Source: Thermoplasmata archaeon | GTDB lineage: Archaea; Thermoplasmatota; Thermoplasmata; GCA-020350865 | Assembly: GCA_020348445.1 (NCBI GenBank) | Contig: CP070751.1 | Location: 3,976,485 to 4,000,561 of the forward strand | Reading direction: 5' to 3' | Length of the DNA stretch: 24,077 bases | In this document: positions 7,749-23,928 of the stretch, one piece after another | Layout of the letters: each line of letters opens with the position of its first letter | Numbering within the stretch: position 1 is the first letter of the stretch | The notes under the pieces: model-generated | Told to the model about the DNA's origin: nothing | Databases searched by the model: none | What the model saw: only the letters and a program-made list of their open reading frames with translations | Position numbers and translations under genes: made by a program

Positions 7749-8687
7749 ATGAAAAGACGAGAGAGAAAATGGACAAAGGGGAAACTGCTTACAGAACCTA
7801 AAAAACATCCTATACTCGCTCTCTGGCATAAACCGGAAGTCCAAAAAATAATAGGTAAAAGAGGGGAGAAGGGGCTGCATTTCAATGATCTGCGATACAT
7901 GCTTTGCAAGGATTACAAGCAGATAAAGAAACCGCCTTCGGAATGGAGCATATTCTCTGACAATACCCTGAAGAAAATGAGGGAATACAACGATTACACG
8001 ATACTTCAGAAGGACCTCACAAAGCTCTGCGATATCGGTTTTTTAAGAAAGGAATCCAGGGGATACTATACCCATGTTGAGATACCTGTTATGCGATACA
8101 TCCAGGATATCAATTTTTCAGGAAGAAACCTAATAGGAACCACCAATGATTGCGATATCGTGGCCACAGAAGCAATAGAACTTTCAGAAGATGTGGAGGG
8201 CGAGTGCGGAGCCCTTTTTAAGGATATCATGAGTGCCAGGGCCATTATGTTCGAGCCAAGGATTCTGGATTTCTGGAATAAGGTGGATTCATCCAAGCTT
8301 GACATACAGCAGAAGATCCTCTTAAGAAGCGAACTGTACCATTTCACAGGAAATGATCATCTCAAAAAGACGATCAAGAAAAAGTGCGTGTTAACCACGA
8401 AAAAGGGCAAAGAATCCTATGATATTCCTCCATTTAAAAAAAGGAATGCAGAAAAACTGAGGAGATTCATAGATCTCAGTAAAAAGCACTCAAAGTTCCT
8501 GGGAGATTACACTGTCAAGTACGCAATCGGGATGTACACATATCCAAATCTCTTTACAGAGGACTACATTAAGGAAAAGGGCGGGGAGTTTCTGGATGAC
8601 CTTGAGCCTTACTTTTCAAGACTACAGGATTTAATTATAGAATTTTCGAAGCCATGTTATGTTCTATTGGCGCCAAGAAGGGAGTGA
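7749..8687 (+). CDS. 312-aa Lys-rich orphan protein with a probable N-terminal winged helix-turn-helix and an unrecognised C-terminal domain
   Basis: ORF track; pattern GLHFNDLRYML...LQKDLTKLCDIGFLRKESRGYY resembles wHTH helix 2, recognition helix and wing (ArsR/MarR-like) with an insertion; no signal peptide or TM; divergent from the surface-protein pair. Confidence 0.7.
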   Translation: MKRRERKWTKGKLLTEPKKHPILALWHKPEVQKIIGKRGEKGLHFNDLRYMLCKDYKQIKKPPSEWSIFSDNTLKKMREYNDYTILQKDLTKLCDIGFLRKESRGYYTHVEIPVMRYIQDINFSGRNLIGTTNDCDIVATEAIELSEDVEGECGALFKDIMSARAIMFEPRILDFWNKVDSSKLDIQQKILLRSELYHFTGNDHLKKTIKKKCVLTTKKGKESYDIPPFKKRNAEKLRRFIDLSKKHSKFLGDYTVKYAIGMYTYPNLFTEDYIKEKGGEFLDDLEPYFSRLQDLIIEFSKPCYVLLAPRRE

Positions 8688-15126: not shown

Positions 15127-18100
15127 ATGACCTTGGCGAGTGCCGAAGGTTGCTTTTTAAAAAAGAGAAGGCTTTCTGTGCTGTTGCTTACTGGTATGAT
15201 AATGATGTCATACTTTTTTGGTCTTGATATGAACGCAAGGGCACAATCAGAAAATGTCTATGTGGATGGATACGTGTTTGATATTGGCTTTGGCACACCT
15301 ATAGACAATGCCACTGTTTATCTTCAAAATACCCGTGATGGCTCAACAAACTTCACCAAAACCAATGCCACAGGTTATTACAATGTCAGCATTTATGCAC
15401 CACCCTTTGGCGAAGTATTTGTTGTAACAGCATTTCACGAGGATTACCTGATGAATTCCCAATATGTCTGGCTAGAACCTGGGAATCCACAATATGTTGA
15501 ACTCTATCTTAACCGCGCAATGAACAAGAATTCCTCTGTTCATGGAAAGATTTTGGATGCAGTGACCATGACTCCCTTACCCTTTGCAAGGGTTGCTGCA
15601 TTGGGTGATAACTACATCAACACAACGAGCTCCGATGCCGCAGGATACTTTTGGATGGCACTGGAATCAGACCAACGATATTATATCCAGGCAGAAATGG
15701 ACGGTTACGAGGATCAGATGAGGTCCGGTTATTTCGACATGGGTGATAACTTGACTTTTAATTTCTACATGGAGCCTCTTAACTGCACATTAAAAGGCTT
15801 TGTGAACAATTCCAAAGGGGCCCTTGGATCTGCAACCGTCTACGCATATAGATTGGATGAGGTGGCTACAACAGAGTATTGGCCCGAAGTAAATGCCAGC
15901 ACAGGTTACTTTGAGCTCAACTTAACAAGGGGTGTTTGGCAGGTTGAAGTGAGCGAGTATCTGCATTATTCACAGACCCTTTCTGTCATAATGTTAAATG
16001 ACCAGACAACCTGGCAGAACTTCACTTTAGCAAAATTACCAACTGAAAACGCAACTGTTCAGGGATATGTGCGATATTACCACAATGGTTCTGGAGCTCC
16101 ATGGGCTAACATTTACGCCAACAACCAAAATAGAACATGGAGTGGGTACAACAGCACGAACGAGACTGGATGGTACACGATGACAGTGATTCCCGGAGAA
16201 ATCATATTTAATACCTGGGTTAACGGATACAGCGGTGCAGAAACATCTATAACCGTCGAGGAGGGGGGAACCTATTACCATAACCTTACTGTTTTTAATT
16301 GGTGGTCAACTGGCTATCTAGAAGGATATGTTAATTACAGCGGCATCGGAGAACCTGATGTGGTTATCAGGGTATCATATGGAAACTGGCGTTACGATGA
16401 TAGAACCGATCCGTCAGGCTATTATAACATATCGGTTCCAGGTGCACCCTTGGAGGTTCAGGCATATAAGAATGGATTCAAACCTGTGATGACCCAGGTC
16501 AACACCACGGCGGGCCAGACCACTGTTTTGAACATGGACCTGGAGCCTATTGACTGGAGCTGCGAGGTTAGAGGTTATATAAATAACACAAATGGCGAAC
16601 CCTTAGAGGGGGCCTACGCAAGTTTCGATTACAGCGGCTTTGGATGGGACAGTGCAACTGGTGTTACAGATTACACAGGCCTTTATCAAATGATGGTCCC
16701 TGCAGGATACACAACCACATTCGTATTTGCCGATAGTCATGAGTACAAAACAGGAGAAGTCAACCTCCCGAAAGATGAAATATACTGGTTTAACGAAACC
16801 CTTGAGCCTGTGGACCAGGATGCGAGGGTAATCTGTAAATTCACAAATATCTACACTGGAAAACCAATAAAACACACTGAAATTACGTTCAGTGAACAGG
16901 ATCTATTATGGTTTACTTCCGCAGAAACAGATGAAAATGGAATGGTAAAAGCAGACGTTCCATCTGGTTTTGTCGGAGTCAGTATAAATGCCTGGGAAAG
17001 CGGATACAAGAATCCTGGCATGTCCCGGGACCCCTCCACCATGCAGTTTTTACTATCGCCCTCTGAAACGAGATGGCTGAACATAAGCCTTTTTCCCAGG
17101 GAAAATAGGGCTATGTTGCATGGTTATGTTAACGATACCCTTGCCAATCCAATTGTAGGTGCTACTGTGTATCTACGGTACGGGGATACGATCATATCCA
17201 ATACAACGGACAGTTCAGGATATTATGAACTGGAAATACCAGGGGATCAATGGATAAACGCATGGGTAAGGGCATCGGGGTATAGGATATCAGAATACAG
17301 TGACCAGATTTGGGAATTTGATGACAGATGGAACGATTGGATTCTTGAGGATTCACCAGCGTCAATTGAAGGGCCAATTACCGATTCAGCAGTGGATTTG
17401 GATGGTGATACCAAATATGATGTCCTGTATGTCTATGTTCCTGTAAATGTAGCTCAGCTTGGAGAGTATCGTTTGGAGGGGTATCTTGCTGAGAGCAGTG
17501 ACTCACGCCAAGGAATTACAAGTGCTGGAGCACAATTTGGTGATACATTAGGGGTGCAGATAATTACCCTAGCCTTTGTGGGGGAGCAGATTCGCAATTC
17601 AAAGAAGGACGGATACCTGGTAAATATCCAGCTTCTTTCCGAATCCACATGGGAATTACTGGATAAAACCGAGCACTACACAACTTCCTACTTCCATGAT
17701 GAGTTCGAGATTCCAGATGCCAAAATCGAAAAACCTGTTGAGCAATGGCTTGTGGATACTGACCTTGATGGACTCTACAATTACCTTATAATCAATGCGA
17801 CCTTAAATGTCAGTGTAGCTGGAGATTATTCGCTATTAGGACCCATGAGAGATATCTGGGGTGACGAGTTTGAGATGGCCTTCGAGACCTTGTCCCTGGA
17901 AACAGGTATACAGGAAGTCCAGATTACATTTGACGGCACCTCTATATACAACAATGGCGAGACCTTAGGTTCTGTCTATATGGTTCTATTTGAGGGAACC
18001 CCTGAGGAGGGAAGCGAGTATATTCACTCGCACTTCTTCTACACACCATACGCATATGATATCTTTCAATTCTACAGTATTGATTCATTTGTATCTGGAT

Positions 18101-21100
18101 ATGTGACTGATATGGGGAATCAACCAATAGAGGGCATGACAGTCTGGATATACAACATCACCCAAAAGTACCTGAACGAGACCACGACCAACGCCTCGGG
18201 ATATTACGAGCTTGGAGGATGGAGTGGTGATTGGATTATCGTGGTAAATGATGACGAGGGTGATAACCTATACCAGGGAGATTTAACTGAAATTACACTT
18301 TCAACAGGTATGACCTCCCATGATTTCCTGAATCTTCCGTATACAATGCTGGACGAAATCGAAATGCAGCTGATTTTCTCGGACTGGAACAACACCAGAT
18401 TGGATTGGCTGCTTTATGCCATGGGAGATAATCGGACCATAAGATTTGAGATGGACGTGCTTCAGTTTGGTGATGGGGATGGTTTCGTATCAGAAGAGGA
18501 AGCGGAGATGGTTATGGGTATGATAGGCACCCTGAACCTCCCTTCCAACAGTAATGATTCCTTCCTTGTGGATGACATCTGGTATGATCTAAATCAATCT
18601 TCCATGACCAGGGATGTCGGCCTAACTGGATCGATAACATCAAAAGACCCGGTCTATATTCACCTGACAGCAGATTACATTGCCAATTCCACTATTCCTG
18701 ATCCAAGCCCACATAATCTCACCCTGAACTGCACCTACGATGATACTGATTCAGGTAGCTTCATAGGTAACAATGTGACAAATGTTTATTATATTGATCC
18801 CCCGATGGATTGGGGAAGGACAGGAAACGGAACAATCCAGAATATTACCATTTCTGGTTCAGATTACATTATTGTTGATCCTTTAGAAGATCCAGATCCA
18901 GGTGATGGGAACATCTCGGAGTGGGTGAATATAACCATATCCCTTGGTATTTCCCCAACCACCGGATCCATAAAGGGTAACGTCACTTTGCAGGGTACCG
19001 GTGATCATAGTGGTGTTGTGGTCACTGTTTATGATAATGTCACCAAGATAGAGGTTGCCAACGCTCCAACCGATCCTAATGGTTATTATGAGATTTCAGG
19101 AATAGCACCAGGAAATTATTCAATCGTGGCCCACAAGGCAGGATACGGCGACAATACCTCACAAAATAATTCCTTGATAGAAGGTGAGACTCTCTGGTTG
19201 GATTTTACACTCTTTTCCTATCCGCCCAAAATCCTTCATTCCCCCACAACAAGTGCTGTTATAGGAGATACAATAAACATCATAGCGGATGTGACAGACG
19301 ACGGTGAAGTTGACGAGGTTATCATCTATTACAAGGACGTGGGTTCTGGCTCGTATTCCTCCGCCGCCATGATCCAGATTCCATCAACACCAACATATAT
19401 GGGAACTATCCCGGCCCAGTCCCAATTAGGTTATGTGGATTATTATATATGGGCAAATGATACAAAAGGTAATTTCGCAACCCATCCTAAAACCGGCAAC
19501 CATTCAATATTCATCTATGAGGCAAATCCTCCCGAAATATCCAATTTAATTGTATCACCAGACCCAGCAGAGTATCCAGATTTTGTTAACATCAGTGTAA
19601 ATGTGACAGATGATACGCTCCTTGTAGATGTATCATTGTATTTGGAGATGCCGGATTTAAGCACTATAAACCTCACAATGTTGTATGATGCTAGCCAGGG
19701 CCGGTACTATATCAATGCCTCATATTCGATGCTCGGAACATATAATTTTACCATATGGGCAAACGACTCCTTCAACAACTGGAACTTTTCATCCGGCAGC
19801 TTCATTGTCCAGGACACGATTGCACCAACAAGCAGCGCGGATTGGATTTCCCAGTACTGGCAGACATCCTCACCCATAACTGTTGATGCCACAGCCAGCG
19901 ATTCCAGCGGAACAGGTGTGGATTATGTGGACCTCTGGTACCGTTATTCCATCGACAATTCAACATGGGGTTTGTGGACCCAATTCCAAACAGATTCCTC
20001 AAGTCCATACAATTACACATTCAATTTCCCAGATGGTGAAGGCTACTATGAGTTCTTCTCCATTGCCACAGATTATGCGGGAAATCCTGAGACAATGAAG
20101 TCCACCAATGAGACCCTGGTGGGCTATGATGCCTCTGCACCCACCTCTTATGTGGATACCATAACCACCTATTGGCACACAACTTCCCCTGTTGTAATCA
20201 ACGTCACTGCATCCGATACTGTAAGCGGTGTAGCATACGTAGAGCTATGGTACCGATACTCAATAGACAACTCATCATGGAGCTCTTGGACAATTTATGG
20301 CACCGATTCCTCAATACCTTATGACTGGATCTTCAACTTTCCTGATGGAGAGGGATACTACGAATACTTCTCAATTGCCAACGACACTCTGGGTAACTCC
20401 GAAGCCATGAAAGTCTCGTATGAAGCCTTATGCGGATACGATGCAACTGATCCCTCTTCAAATGTTGAGGTTATCGATTCTTATTGGCACACCACTTCGC
20501 CTGTCATAATAAATGCCACTGCTTCTGATACTGTAAGCGGTATAGAATACGTGGAGCTGTGGTACCGATATTCCATCGACAACTCCTCGTGGAGCTCCTG
20601 GACACTATTTAGCACCGATACATCAGAACCATATGGATGGACGTTCGACTTCCCAAGTGGCGAAGGTTATTATGAATTCTACTCAATTGCAATAGATTAT
20701 GCACAAAATCCCGAGCCTGCAAAGTCATCATCTGATACTCTTTGCGCTTACGATGTTTCCCCACCTGTTTCCAATGTAGATGCTATTGATAAATATTGGC
20801 ACATCACATCCCCATTGATCATCAATGTAACAGCATCTGACACTGTAAGCGGCATAACATACGTAGAGCTGTGGTACCGATACTCCATCGACAACTCATC
20901 ATGGGGCTCCTGGACAAATTACAACATAGATAACTCAGTACCCTATGGATGGGACTTCGACTTCCCAGACGGTGAAGGTTACTACGAATTCTTTTCAATT
21001 GCCAACGACACCATAGGGAACTCCGAAGCCATGAAAGTCTCCTACGAGGCCCTGTGCGGGTACGATGCAACTGATCCCACTTCAAATATGGAGGTTATTG

Positions 21101-23928
21101 ATCCTTATTGGCAGCCCACCTCAACCATTATAATAAATGTCAGTGCCTCTGATACTATAAGTGGAGTGGAAACGGTTTGGCTATATTACCGGTTCCTACC
21201 TGACAACTCATCGGGAACACCGTGGATTATGCACAGCTCTGATTCCTCCATACCATATCAATGGAACTTCAACTTACCAAATGGTGAGGGATTTTACCAA
21301 TTCTTGTCAACAGCCATAGATTATGCGCAAAATACCGAGGCAATTAAGCCTTCTTATGAAGCCCTTTGCGGTTATGATATTACCCCACCTTCATCCAATG
21401 TGGATTTAATAGACACATATTGGCAAATCACATCTCCATTGACCATCAACGTCACAGCATCCGATACCGTGAGCGGTATAGAACACATAGTTCTATGGTA
21501 CCGATACTCAATAGATAACTCATCGTGGAGCTCTTGGACAAATTATGGTGTAGATACGTCGGAACCCTATGGATGGAACTTCAACTTCCCTGACGGAGAG
21601 GGATACTACGAGTTCTTCTCCATTGCCAACGACAGTGCACAAAACCCCGAGACCATGAAATCCTCAAACGAAACCATATGTGCCTATGATATTACACCGT
21701 CTACCTCAAATGTAGATGGTATAGACACATATTGGCAAGTCACCTCTCCATTAACCATCAGTGCCACAGCCACAGATACTATGAGCGGCATAGAATACGT
21801 GGTGCTGTGGTACCGATATTCTATAGACAATTCATCATGGAGCTCTTGGGAAAATTATGGTGTAGAAACGTCAGAACCCTATGGATGGAACTTCAACTTC
21901 CCAGACGGCGAAGGATATTACGAATTCTTCTCAATTGCCAACGACAGTGCACAGAACAGCGAGACAATGAAAAATACAGCCGAGGCACTTTGCGCATTTG
22001 ATGCTGTAAAGCCCGCATCCTTTGTTAATAATATCTCCCCATATTGGCGGACCACTTCCTCGATTGTTTTGGATGCCACAGCCTCTGATGGCACAAGTGG
22101 TGTTGTCAGTGTTGCACTTTATTACAGGTACTCATCAGATGGCTCTTCATGGGGTTCGGATATGATATTTGGAACCGATACCTCTTTCCCATGGTCCTTT
22201 AGCTTCAATTACCCTTCAGGCGACGGTTACTATGAATTCTACAGCAGGGCAGCCGATTTATCAGGTCTTGTGGAGGATGAACCTGCATCTGCTGATACTG
22301 CATGCGCATTGGATACATCGGATCCTGCATTTCTCAGTGCTATTGAATTGCCAGCACCATGGGAATTTAGCAATACTTACAATCTCTCCATATCAATTTC
22401 AGATATATCGGGAATCAGTGATGCATGGATGGAGATAACAATAAACGACGCACCAGTGGAAAACGAATCAATGGATAACTTGGGCCAGGACTTCTGGAAT
22501 TCCTTTTCTGCAACAGAGGAAGGAACATTGAATATAACGGTATGGGTGGTGGACAACAACGGCCAGTGGAATTCTGTTTCCTTCTCCACCCAGGTCAAGG
22601 ATACGATACAGCCATCTATCACGAACTTCAATTTCTCACCCTCCGATCCCCAGGTGAAAAGCAGTGTGAGGGTGAGCGTTCAGGTAAGCGACGTCAGCGG
22701 CATTGCGGCCTGCACCATCGACATCAGAAGGCCAAACGGTGTTAGACTCCTTAACGAGTCCATGACCAGAGAAGGGAGTTCAGATGTTTACTCTTACCAG
22801 ACCGATTATAATGATTTGGGTGAACACCAGATCTTAATCTGGGCTGAGGACGGACATGGTCTTGGAACCCTGCTCAGTGATTCGATCACAACTGTGGATA
22901 CAGAACTACCCCATGCAGATGCAGGATCCTCGCAAGAGGTAGCTGTGAGGCAAGAAGTCAATCTGGATGCAAGTCTCAGCACGGACAACGATGATATAGC
23001 AAATTATACATGGTCGTTTTTAGACGATGGTCGGAAATACCTGTACGGAAAAAGCGTGCAATATACTTTCAATTCTGTGGGTGATTATGATATAACATTA
23101 ATTGTTACTGACTTTGCAGGCAACACAGATTCAGCAGTCATCTGGATAAATGTCTCTGCCATTTCGGGTACAGGCTCTGTGACTGGGACTGTCCGTGATA
23201 AGGATGGAAACCCGATTTCGGGAGCCACAGTGTATGTGGAGGATTACCCATCAATTGAGACCACCACTGATTCTCTTGGCAGGTTCACGTTGGATGGAGT
23301 TCCCACTGGCAACCAGACTATCATTGTGGAAAAGGATGGGTATAAGTGGAAGTCCCAGGACGTCACAATACAGCAGGATCAAACCACACCGGCGGGTAAC
23401 ATAGAACTGGCAAAATCAGTCTCAGAAGAGGAGGCACCCTGGTTGATATTCTCAGCAATCGCGGCAGCCATAGCAGTTTTAGCTGCCCTCCTTATATTCT
23501 TCTTGTTGAAGGTGAAGAAGTCCCCAGAGGGGGCTGTGATCGATGAAGTGTTCTTCATGTACGGTGACGGTAGATTAATCAAACATTTCACAAGAAGGTT
23601 GAAACCTGATATAGATGAGGACATCTTAAGCAGCATGCTGGTTGCGGTCCAGGACTTTATCAAGGACTCCTTCAAGGATCAGGAAGGAATATTGGACGAG
23701 ATGAAGTTCGGCAGGTTCCAGTTCTTACTAGGCAGGGGGAAACACATTATACTTGCCGTGATCGTTCTCGGCGACGAACTGGAGCAATTCAAACCGCAAG
23801 TCAAGAAATGCATAGAGGATATCGAAGAGAATTATGCCGATGCCTTGGAGGAATGGGACGGTGAGATGGCCAAGGTTAGGGGAGCCTCTAAGTACATCAT
23901 GGATTTAATAGATGGGAGATACACCTGA
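15127..23928 (+). CDS. 2933-aa giant type-I membrane surface protein: signal peptide, ~11 carboxypeptidase-regulatory-like domains, 2 DxDxDG-bearing Ig domains, orphan acidic domain, 8 tandem 104-aa Ig repeats, further Ig domains, PKD, TM helix, cytoplasmic longin-like domain
   Basis: ORF track; AGGTGA RBS 4 nt upstream; KKRR + hydrophobic signal ending ARA; repeated .G.V....G.PI.GA.V....T...G.Y....G.Y......GY units; PKD-type PHADAG...LDAS.STD...NYTW.F...G.YDITL.VTD; TM WLIFSAIAAAIAVLAALLIFFLL at 23440..23508 followed by KVKK. Confidence 0.95.
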   Translation: MTLASAEGCFLKKRRLSVLLLTGMIMMSYFFGLDMNARAQSENVYVDGYVFDIGFGTPIDNATVYLQNTRDGSTNFTKTNATGYYNVSIYAPPFGEVFVVTAFHEDYLMNSQYVWLEPGNPQYVELYLNRAMNKNSSVHGKILDAVTMTPLPFARVAALGDNYINTTSSDAAGYFWMALESDQRYYIQAEMDGYEDQMRSGYFDMGDNLTFNFYMEPLNCTLKGFVNNSKGALGSATVYAYRLDEVATTEYWPEVNASTGYFELNLTRGVWQVEVSEYLHYSQTLSVIMLNDQTTWQNFTLAKLPTENATVQGYVRYYHNGSGAPWANIYANNQNRTWSGYNSTNETGWYTMTVIPGEIIFNTWVNGYSGAETSITVEEGGTYYHNLTVFNWWSTGYLEGYVNYSGIGEPDVVIRVSYGNWRYDDRTDPSGYYNISVPGAPLEVQAYKNGFKPVMTQVNTTAGQTTVLNMDLEPIDWSCEVRGYINNTNGEPLEGAYASFDYSGFGWDSATGVTDYTGLYQMMVPAGYTTTFVFADSHEYKTGEVNLPKDEIYWFNETLEPVDQDARVICKFTNIYTGKPIKHTEITFSEQDLLWFTSAETDENGMVKADVPSGFVGVSINAWESGYKNPGMSRDPSTMQFLLSPSETRWLNISLFPRENRAMLHGYVNDTLANPIVGATVYLRYGDTIISNTTDSSGYYELEIPGDQWINAWVRASGYRISEYSDQIWEFDDRWNDWILEDSPASIEGPITDSAVDLDGDTKYDVLYVYVPVNVAQLGEYRLEGYLAESSDSRQGITSAGAQFGDTLGVQIITLAFVGEQIRNSKKDGYLVNIQLLSESTWELLDKTEHYTTSYFHDEFEIPDAKIEKPVEQWLVDTDLDGLYNYLIINATLNVSVAGDYSLLGPMRDIWGDEFEMAFETLSLETGIQEVQITFDGTSIYNNGETLGSVYMVLFEGTPEEGSEYIHSHFFYTPYAYDIFQFYSIDSFVSGYVTDMGNQPIEGMTVWIYNITQKYLNETTTNASGYYELGGWSGDWIIVVNDDEGDNLYQGDLTEITLSTGMTSHDFLNLPYTMLDEIEMQLIFSDWNNTRLDWLLYAMGDNRTIRFEMDVLQFGDGDGFVSEEEAEMVMGMIGTLNLPSNSNDSFLVDDIWYDLNQSSMTRDVGLTGSITSKDPVYIHLTADYIANSTIPDPSPHNLTLNCTYDDTDSGSFIGNNVTNVYYIDPPMDWGRTGNGTIQNITISGSDYIIVDPLEDPDPGDGNISEWVNITISLGISPTTGSIKGNVTLQGTGDHSGVVVTVYDNVTKIEVANAPTDPNGYYEISGIAPGNYSIVAHKAGYGDNTSQNNSLIEGETLWLDFTLFSYPPKILHSPTTSAVIGDTINIIADVTDDGEVDEVIIYYKDVGSGSYSSAAMIQIPSTPTYMGTIPAQSQLGYVDYYIWANDTKGNFATHPKTGNHSIFIYEANPPEISNLIVSPDPAEYPDFVNISVNVTDDTLLVDVSLYLEMPDLSTINLTMLYDASQGRYYINASYSMLGTYNFTIWANDSFNNWNFSSGSFIVQDTIAPTSSADWISQYWQTSSPITVDATASDSSGTGVDYVDLWYRYSIDNSTWGLWTQFQTDSSSPYNYTFNFPDGEGYYEFFSIATDYAGNPETMKSTNETLVGYDASAPTSYVDTITTYWHTTSPVVINVTASDTVSGVAYVELWYRYSIDNSSWSSWTIYGTDSSIPYDWIFNFPDGEGYYEYFSIANDTLGNSEAMKVSYEALCGYDATDPSSNVEVIDSYWHTTSPVIINATASDTVSGIEYVELWYRYSIDNSSWSSWTLFSTDTSEPYGWTFDFPSGEGYYEFYSIAIDYAQNPEPAKSSSDTLCAYDVSPPVSNVDAIDKYWHITSPLIINVTASDTVSGITYVELWYRYSIDNSSWGSWTNYNIDNSVPYGWDFDFPDGEGYYEFFSIANDTIGNSEAMKVSYEALCGYDATDPTSNMEVIDPYWQPTSTIIINVSASDTISGVETVWLYYRFLPDNSSGTPWIMHSSDSSIPYQWNFNLPNGEGFYQFLSTAIDYAQNTEAIKPSYEALCGYDITPPSSNVDLIDTYWQITSPLTINVTASDTVSGIEHIVLWYRYSIDNSSWSSWTNYGVDTSEPYGWNFNFPDGEGYYEFFSIANDSAQNPETMKSSNETICAYDITPSTSNVDGIDTYWQVTSPLTISATATDTMSGIEYVVLWYRYSIDNSSWSSWENYGVETSEPYGWNFNFPDGEGYYEFFSIANDSAQNSETMKNTAEALCAFDAVKPASFVNNISPYWRTTSSIVLDATASDGTSGVVSVALYYRYSSDGSSWGSDMIFGTDTSFPWSFSFNYPSGDGYYEFYSRAADLSGLVEDEPASADTACALDTSDPAFLSAIELPAPWEFSNTYNLSISISDISGISDAWMEITINDAPVENESMDNLGQDFWNSFSATEEGTLNITVWVVDNNGQWNSVSFSTQVKDTIQPSITNFNFSPSDPQVKSSVRVSVQVSDVSGIAACTIDIRRPNGVRLLNESMTREGSSDVYSYQTDYNDLGEHQILIWAEDGHGLGTLLSDSITTVDTELPHADAGSSQEVAVRQEVNLDASLSTDNDDIANYTWSFLDDGRKYLYGKSVQYTFNSVGDYDITLIVTDFAGNTDSAVIWINVSAISGTGSVTGTVRDKDGNPISGATVYVEDYPSIETTTDSLGRFTLDGVPTGNQTIIVEKDGYKWKSQDVTIQQDQTTPAGNIELAKSVSEEEAPWLIFSAIAAAIAVLAALLIFFLLKVKKSPEGAVIDEVFFMYGDGRLIKHFTRRLKPDIDEDILSSMLVAVQDFIKDSFKDQEGILDEMKFGRFQFLLGRGKHIILAVIVLGDELEQFKPQVKKCIEDIEENYADALEEWDGEMAKVRGASKYIMDLIDGRYT
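19813..22311 (+). repeat. Eight in-frame tandem repeats of 312 nt (104 aa; first unit 315 nt) encoding Ig-like domains
   Basis: Unit starts at 19813, 20128, 20440, 20752, 21064, 21376, 21688, 22000; consensus D...P.S.V..I..YW..TSP..I..TASD..SG...V.LWYRYSIDNSSW..W.....D.S.PY.W.F.FPDGEGYYEFFSIA.D...N.E..K...E.LC.Y. Confidence 0.97.

Follow-up and report, generated by a model that had tools for sequence, protein, structure and literature searches.

A giant surface protein of a Thermoplasmata archaeon with a predicted cytoplasmic longin-fold tail, from a domain family linked to Ras-like GTPases

We analysed a 24,077-nucleotide (nt) stretch of DNA (the window; G000:C1:3976485-4000561) from the 5.16-Mb, single-contig genome G000 of an uncultured Thermoplasmata archaeon, and within it the gene for a 2933-residue protein. 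We found that this protein joins a giant adhesin-like ectodomain, through one transmembrane (TM) helix, to a C-terminal tail for which the combination of a longin fold and a cytoplasmic location is very probable. A sequence-only reading of the same DNA had proposed this architecture, with a globular domain of about 130 residues after the helix, and its quoted motifs are all present in the single reading frame. The tail belongs to a large domain family, and gene neighbourhood and phyletic co-occurrence support a link between that family and small GTPases.

The tail comprises KVKK and, after it, 135 residues up to the stop codon. An AlphaFold2 model made from the single sequence had a predicted local distance difference test score (pLDDT) of 57; it was too uncertain and was replaced by a model based on an alignment of 37 sequences (alignment A1: the 21 domain copies of the same genome and 16 short stand-alone relatives), which reached a pLDDT of 87.9 and a predicted template modelling score of 0.82. 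In this model, DSSP assigns strands b1 (residues 10-18) and b2 (23-28), helix a1 (37-54), strands b3 (64-67), b4 (70-76) and b5 (80-87), and helices a2 (91-114) and a3 (120-134). The predicted element order is thus b-b-a-b-b-b-a-a, the longin order that the sequence-only reading had put forward, and the model has a five-stranded sheet with one helix and the two C-terminal helices on opposite faces. Across the 37 sequences, helix a1 is the most conserved segment of the domain, and the late WDG motif has two invariant residues, W2910 and G2912.

We compared the model with 48,161 representatives of the PDB by VIA-align and listed the top 50 matches. The best whole-domain matches are solved longin domains (Z 10-12.4, 116-133/139 residues aligned), led by the CPLANE chain 7q3d_C (Z 12.4, 124 residues) and the TRAPP chain 3cue_A (12.1, 126 residues), with the chains 9rs6_B (11.7, 131 residues) and 4afi_B (11.1, 125 residues) close behind. 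Listed by protein, Mon1-Ccz1 scores 11.7 and 11.1, the VAMP7 longin domain 11.1, the AP sigma and mu subunits 10-10.7 and Sec22 10.2; the SRX structures 2go5, 6frk, 5ck3 and 1nrj score 7.4-9.1. Foldseek agrees: Mon1-Ccz1 ranks first (E 8.8e-5), MglB, Asgard roadblocks, Ragulator, AP sigma and TRAPP come next, and its top 50 are GTPase-platform proteins of the longin and roadblock kinds. None of the 50 listed matches of either search has a PAS, GAF or profilin fold, a result with which a distant relationship to these folds is still compatible. The longin fold proposed earlier from the letters is supported by the whole-domain matches. Sequence identity to the eukaryotic longin domains is only 5-13%.

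The structures of roadblock and MglB proteins, Asgard ones included, also match (Z 8.8-10), but over only 91-106 residues. The model lacks the roadblock-type N-terminal helix, since b1 starts nine residues past the TM helix, and Pfam hmmscan gives the focal tail no match to PF03259 (Roadblock/LC7). One paralogue scores 15.5 bits against Roadblock/LC7, below the cut-off, and hhalign of the focal domain against the six Robl_LC7 proteins of the same genome returns a weak, in-register match (probability 41%, E 2.8e-4, 101 columns). On these profile comparisons, a distant homology with the roadblock superfamily is plausible without being established. Scanned with Pfam at E ≤ 10, alone and with the TM helix, the tail gives only two sub-threshold, unrelated matches, and phmmer and profile searches of PDB sequences with it return nothing relevant.

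The orientation of the protein can be read from its composition. The TM helix and the N-terminal segment are its sole strongly hydrophobic stretches. Acidic residues (SEEEAP) precede the helix and basic ones (KVKK) follow it, so that the positive-inside rule is satisfied. The ectodomain carries 85 N-x-S/T sequons (34 are expected from shuffles) and the tail none, while lysine plus arginine content is 15% in the tail versus 3.7% in the ectodomain. Because the flank charges, the sequon distribution and the lysine plus arginine content agree, we place the tail in the cytoplasm, as had been proposed; the location is supported by sequence features. The ectodomain is accordingly predicted to be surface-exposed and heavily N-glycosylated, in a type I topology. 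Anchoring by a PGF-CTERM signal and archaeosortase was considered and rejected, since a folded domain of about 135 residues lies after the TM helix.

An exhaustive HMMER search with the tail domain retrieved 3037 cluster representatives at E ≤ 1e-3, 1233 at E ≤ 1e-10 and 63 at E ≤ 1e-30. Rather than a chance pattern, it is a genuine, conserved domain, and no Pfam model exists for its family. In most matches it is C-terminal, a few residues past a TM helix, in proteins of about 150 to more than 2600 residues with varied ectodomains; other matches are soluble proteins that carry it in two or three copies. The focal genome has 21 copies in 19 genes, mostly at the end, after a TM helix, of proteins of 1600-5200 residues. 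The domain is also found fused to Response_reg, in SAP proteins and, nested, in AAA_16-TPR STAND proteins. In the latter (about 936-982 residues; L030:6918-9728, L030:9733-12543 and G000 23701-26649) it lies after about residue 100 of the ATPase, and two of the three genes are directly followed by a Ras-like GTPase gene. A soluble protein of 2171 residues (G000 554290-560805, L035) has no TM helix and three longin copies about 505 residues apart; its homologues elsewhere have two or three copies (P0008, P0016, P0017 and others).

The named relatives of the tail come in every case from metagenome-assembled genomes (MAGs) of Thermoplasmata or Thermoplasmatota, and a locus search with the single focal protein found one Thermoplasmata MAG contig. 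The non-Asgard origin claimed from the sequence fits the names of the closest relatives, which are Thermoplasmata. Their annotations read hypothetical, "carboxypeptidase regulatory-like" or "zinc ribbon" protein, and no source names the tail domain.

The link to GTPases emerges when the whole genome is considered. Strong matches to the Ras family (down to 1e-38) mark about 34 of its genes, whose products have canonical G1, G3 (WDxxGQ), G4 and G5 motifs. A Ras-family gene is found no more than 1 kb from six of the 19 domain genes, where random placement predicts 0.79, and none of 5000 random placements reached six. At one locus a 5179-residue domain protein is followed by six tandem GTPase genes; at another, three GTPase genes precede a 3605-residue domain protein; at a third, a GTPase gene and a V4R gene come after a 1635-residue domain protein. 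A further run has the order GTPase, V4R, 3915-residue protein and longin protein with four TM helices, with a roadblock gene 1.2 kb beyond. A GTPase gene directly adjoins a V4R (Bet3/TRAPPC3-fold) gene at L032:5667-6716 (G000 4123166-4124215) and at G000 2669296-2670298, and the three TRAPP-core folds (longin, V4R and GTPase) occur together at two paralogous loci, L032 and 2.657-2.670 Mb.

The GTPase genes have features of their own. They lie partly in tandem arrays of 2-6 (for example G000 3131858-3137264, 3703403-3705877 and 5073516-5075072). About half encode a conserved, helical C-terminal extension of about 100 residues (IIDDFC...AMP..R.QF) that has no Pfam match, and these extended GTPases (276-309 residues; for example L033:5408-6292:- and L030:12545-13417:+) constitute the arrays beside longin genes.

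We then counted the two families in 150 genomes of the phylum Thermoplasmatota, with a Ras cut-off of E ≤ 1e-18. Both were present in 25 genomes, the domain only in one, Ras only in two and neither in 122, which puts the domain in 26/150 genomes and Ras in 27/150. The 25 genomes of the first group span 14 families, related genomes being non-independent. Consequently, 25 of the 26 domain-bearing genomes also have Ras matches, in line with the link to small GTPases that the sequence-only reading proposed. Adjacent domain and GTPase genes occur in at least 13 of the sampled genomes, and, of the 27 Ras-positive genomes, 18 have a V4R match no more than about 2 kb from a Ras match. Four genomes (G028, G077, G083 and G146) have many longin genes and a single Ras gene; because of such genomes, pairing in trans must be common if the longin-GTPase link is functional. 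Within the sample, G000 is the largest genome (the rest are ≤4.5 Mb) and has the highest count of Ras-family genes.

These data lead us to lean, with caution, towards a mechanism in which the tail serves as a longin platform, tethered to the membrane, for the docking or regulation of a Ras-like GTPase encoded in trans. The one TM helix would keep the longin tail at the membrane's inner face, and the tail would probably be dimeric, like other longin and roadblock modules. It would dock or regulate one of the GTPases encoded elsewhere in the genome, as a guanine-nucleotide exchange factor (GEF), as a GTPase-activating protein (GAP) or as an effector-type anchor. The state or location of the GTPase would then be tied to the place, and perhaps to the engagement, of the surface protein. 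We infer GTPase binding by the focal copy, the direction of signalling and the type of biochemical activity from the behaviour of the family and of the fold; outside-in signalling would be a further conjecture.

Several observations weigh against a GTPase-docking tail, and most concern the focal gene itself. The proposed tie to small GTPases stands at the family level but not at this gene: within the window and 12 kb downstream, it has no GTPase, roadblock or V4R neighbour, and the TRAPP-like trio of longin, Bet3-fold and Rab-type GTPase genes is absent there. A distance of 36 kb separates the focal gene from the nearest Ras-like GTPase gene, and the downstream genes are housekeeping ones (EF-1alpha, S10, radical SAM, orotidine monophosphate decarboxylase, MCM and NMD3). 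The orthologous locus (L040, encoding P0006) has no GTPase neighbour either. In a tree built from all 21 domain copies of G000, whose deep forks are unresolved, the focal domain groups with no GTPase-adjacent copy. The genes of about 270-residue relatives precede a rhomboid protease gene, rather than a GTPase gene, by 10-14 nt. The tail has no profile match, at Pfam curated cut-offs, to Longin, Clat_adaptor_s, Sybindin, Sedlin_N, Fuz_longin_1 or SRP-alpha_N. Moreover, the longin domains of SNAREs and the AP sigma and mu subunits work without direct GTPase binding. A co-fold of the focal tail monomer with a non-cognate, 182-residue Ras-like GTPase encoded beside a paralogue (4118138-4123045) scored 0.02, in a run without controls, and counts neither for nor against docking. 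As a member of the family the focal gene is typical, but others are more informative, since the partner of its product is not encoded close to it.

Alternatively, the tail could be a GTPase-independent module for intramembrane proteolysis or membrane-protein handling, which recruits or regulates a rhomboid protease or marks its substrate, so that the giant ectodomain could be shed or turned over through cleavage of the TM helix. The closest non-orthologous relatives of the tail (56-61% identity) are the proteins of about 270 residues just mentioned, with zinc ribbons, a PLDc_N-type TM hairpin and a longin domain. Their conserved, tight pairing with the rhomboid gene, followed by tiaS in a housekeeping context, recurs on several unrelated Thermoplasmatota contigs (L063:6001-7732, L065:6001-7730 and L066:3375-5104). 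The focal TM helix is also rich in small residues (SAIAAAIA), and the lack of a GTPase neighbour would be expected. However, no rhomboid gene adjoins the focal gene or its orthologue, the domain family overall tracks Ras-like GTPases, and we know of no precedent for a longin domain that regulates a rhomboid. We regard this explanation as unlikely. A similarly low probability attaches to a tail that serves solely in dimerisation, clustering or anchoring, and that would pair surface proteins, arrange them in lattices or tie them to a cytoplasmic scaffold without a switch protein. Longin and roadblock domains are typically obligate dimers, and the segment most conserved here, a1, forms the dimer interface in roadblock proteins (PMC10933270); the three copies in the soluble 2171-residue paralogue would suit a scaffold as well. 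Yet such a role leaves the near-perfect phyletic coupling with Ras-like GTPases and the repeated gene adjacency unexplained.

The tail could also act in biogenesis, as a targeting device like the SRX longin domain of SR-alpha, which binds the SR-beta GTPase, and thereby aid the insertion or export of very long secreted proteins instead of signalling. The SRX domains are among the structural matches, and the secreted proteins on which the tail domain is enriched in this genome are the very largest ones (1600-5200 residues). A C-terminal domain is made last, however, when most of the ectodomain would already have been translocated, and the domain is also found in soluble STAND, SAP and response-regulator proteins, which makes a targeting role very improbable. 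Least credible to us is that the tail is a sensor of small molecules or protein ligands with a PAS, GAF or profilin-like fold, mis-assigned as a longin domain. Its structure is a prediction, and those folds share the core of b-sheet and helix with longin and roadblock domains (PMC10933270), but the top 50 matches in both structural searches are all longin or roadblock proteins and the order of strands and helices is that of a longin domain.

The proposed GTPase-docking tail has counterparts in several known systems. In eukaryotes, longin GTPase platforms (TRAPP Bet5/Trs23-Ypt1, Mon1-Ccz1-Ypt7, Fuzzy-Inturned of CPLANE and SRX-SR-beta) have the same fold and element order as the tail, and the Thermoplasmata family is likewise coupled, genomically, to Rab/Ras-like GTPases. 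Unlike these platforms, the Thermoplasmata domain sits behind a giant extracellular region and is anchored covalently in the membrane, and its GTPase binding or GEF activity is putative. The longin and roadblock proteins of Asgard archaea (PDB 8yqg, 9jue, 9jq8, 7yh1 and 7f8m; Tran et al. 2024, PMC10933270) are of the same fold superfamily (Z 8.7-10) and are also found in genomes with expanded Rab-like GTPases. They are soluble or fused to a GTPase, whereas the Thermoplasmatota family is mostly TM-anchored and often encoded beside GTPase genes; in MK-D1, a cultured Asgard archaeon, GTPase genes are reported to be generally outside operons with candidate regulators (PMC10933270). MglB and Roadblock-LC7 proteins (PF03259; GAP/GEF of MglA) share the core of b-sheet and central helix with the tail (Z 9.4-9.8, about 105 residues), but the tail has two C-terminal helices, the longin arrangement, and no roadblock N-terminal helix.

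A bacterial parallel was described in the neighbourhoods of Group 1 Rup GTPases, where a protein that combines a conserved domain whose function is unknown with a TM helix and OmpA is encoded (Wuichet and Sogaard-Andersen 2014, PMC4316618). There, too, an unannotated domain is tethered to the membrane and encoded next to a Ras-like GTPase, but the protein is bacterial and its order is reversed (domain, TM helix and periplasmic OmpA). Among the shape neighbours of the tail model in the ESM Atlas are bacterial OmpA and OmpA+BON proteins (TM-score 0.82-0.83 by query); on this similarity between predicted structures, the two domains may be the same. We found no account in the literature of a giant ectodomain with a longin tail, in a search whose coverage excluded most subscription journals and which leaves novelty unproven. 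What comes closest in print is this unnamed domain of the Rup1 neighbourhoods (PMC4316618), together with the longin and roadblock structures from Asgard archaea (PMC10933270).

The features of the focal gene are collected in the table.

Table. Predicted features of the focal gene, in window coordinates
Feature	Position	Strand	Basis or remark
Whole gene, 2933-residue protein, predicted type I membrane topology	15127..23928	+	Single ORF (open reading frame); stop codon 23926-23928
Signal peptide-like N-terminus (KKRR, hydrophobic core, ARA|Q)	15127..15243	+	Read from translation; hydrophobic segment residues 16-34
Adhesin-like ectodomain, about 2730 residues	15244..23439	+	Pfam domains and N-glycosylation sequons
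8 tandem 104-residue repeats (period exact)	19855..22353	+	Motif G-E/D-G-Y/F-Y-E/Q-F/Y in each; boundaries approximate
Single TM helix, residues 2772-2794 (23 residues)	23440..23508	+	Hydropathy 2.88 (Kyte-Doolittle, 19 residues)
Basic juxtamembrane linker KVKKSPEGA	23509..23535	+	Model residues 1-9, low confidence
Predicted cytoplasmic longin-fold domain, residues 2804-2928 (125 residues)	23536..23910	+	AlphaFold2 with alignment; VIA-align; Foldseek

The signal peptide would presumably be cleaved after ARA. The ectodomain matches the Pfam families CarboxypepD_reg (3.7e-82, eight stretches), Big_7 (5.9e-21, Ig repeats) and PKD_4 (7.5e-15, a PKD domain), and its repeat region is matched by Big_7 and DUF7743. 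The repeat motif recurs at residues 1637, 1741, 1845, 1949, 2053, 2157, 2261 and 2365, and the eight copies are closely alike. Because the period is exact and the copies are very similar, recent expansion or homogenisation of the repeats is suggested. The orthologue P0006 is 58% identical to the focal protein over the first 2100 residues of the ectodomain and 74% identical in the tail, and the neighbouring genes are the same at both loci.

The other large genes of the window also encode surface proteins, with CARDB, NosD/beta-helix and PKD domains, and in two of them a TM helix and a short basic tail, but no longin-fold domain, form the C-terminus. A basic protein of 312 residues with no Pfam match is encoded between surface-protein genes (7749-8687, +), and the window further contains geranylgeranyl reductase and NUDIX genes. 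About 5.1 kb past the focal stop codon, the MCM helicase gene (L038:5559-9632) is split by an intein with a LAGLIDADG endonuclease domain.

For the family, our results mean that thousands of proteins annotated as "hypothetical" or "carboxypeptidase regulatory-like domain-containing" carry an unmodelled, predicted cytoplasmic domain that merits a family model. Because many longin and GTPase genes, and many GTPase and V4R genes, are adjacent in Thermoplasmatota, specific pairs can be named as candidate partners for biochemistry. Longin and roadblock platforms and Rab/Ras-like GTPases are usually discussed as innovations on the path from Asgard archaea to eukaryotes. Here, the longin, roadblock and GTPase folds are predicted in large numbers in another archaeal phylum, where the longin component is a fixed part of giant surface proteins, at their cytoplasmic end. 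A more far-reaching scheme, which we hold to be improbable at present, is that Thermoplasmatota run a receptor-coupled, TRAPP-like GTPase switch, in which the membrane-tethered longin tails of giant surface proteins, with V4R proteins encoded beside the GTPases, are exchange-factor platforms for eukaryote-like Rab/Ras GTPases. If so, contact at the cell surface would be relayed to a GTPase inside, with the focal protein as one of many receptors acting in trans, and the core logic of eukaryotic Rab-GEF complexes would predate, and lie outside, the Asgard-eukaryote lineage.

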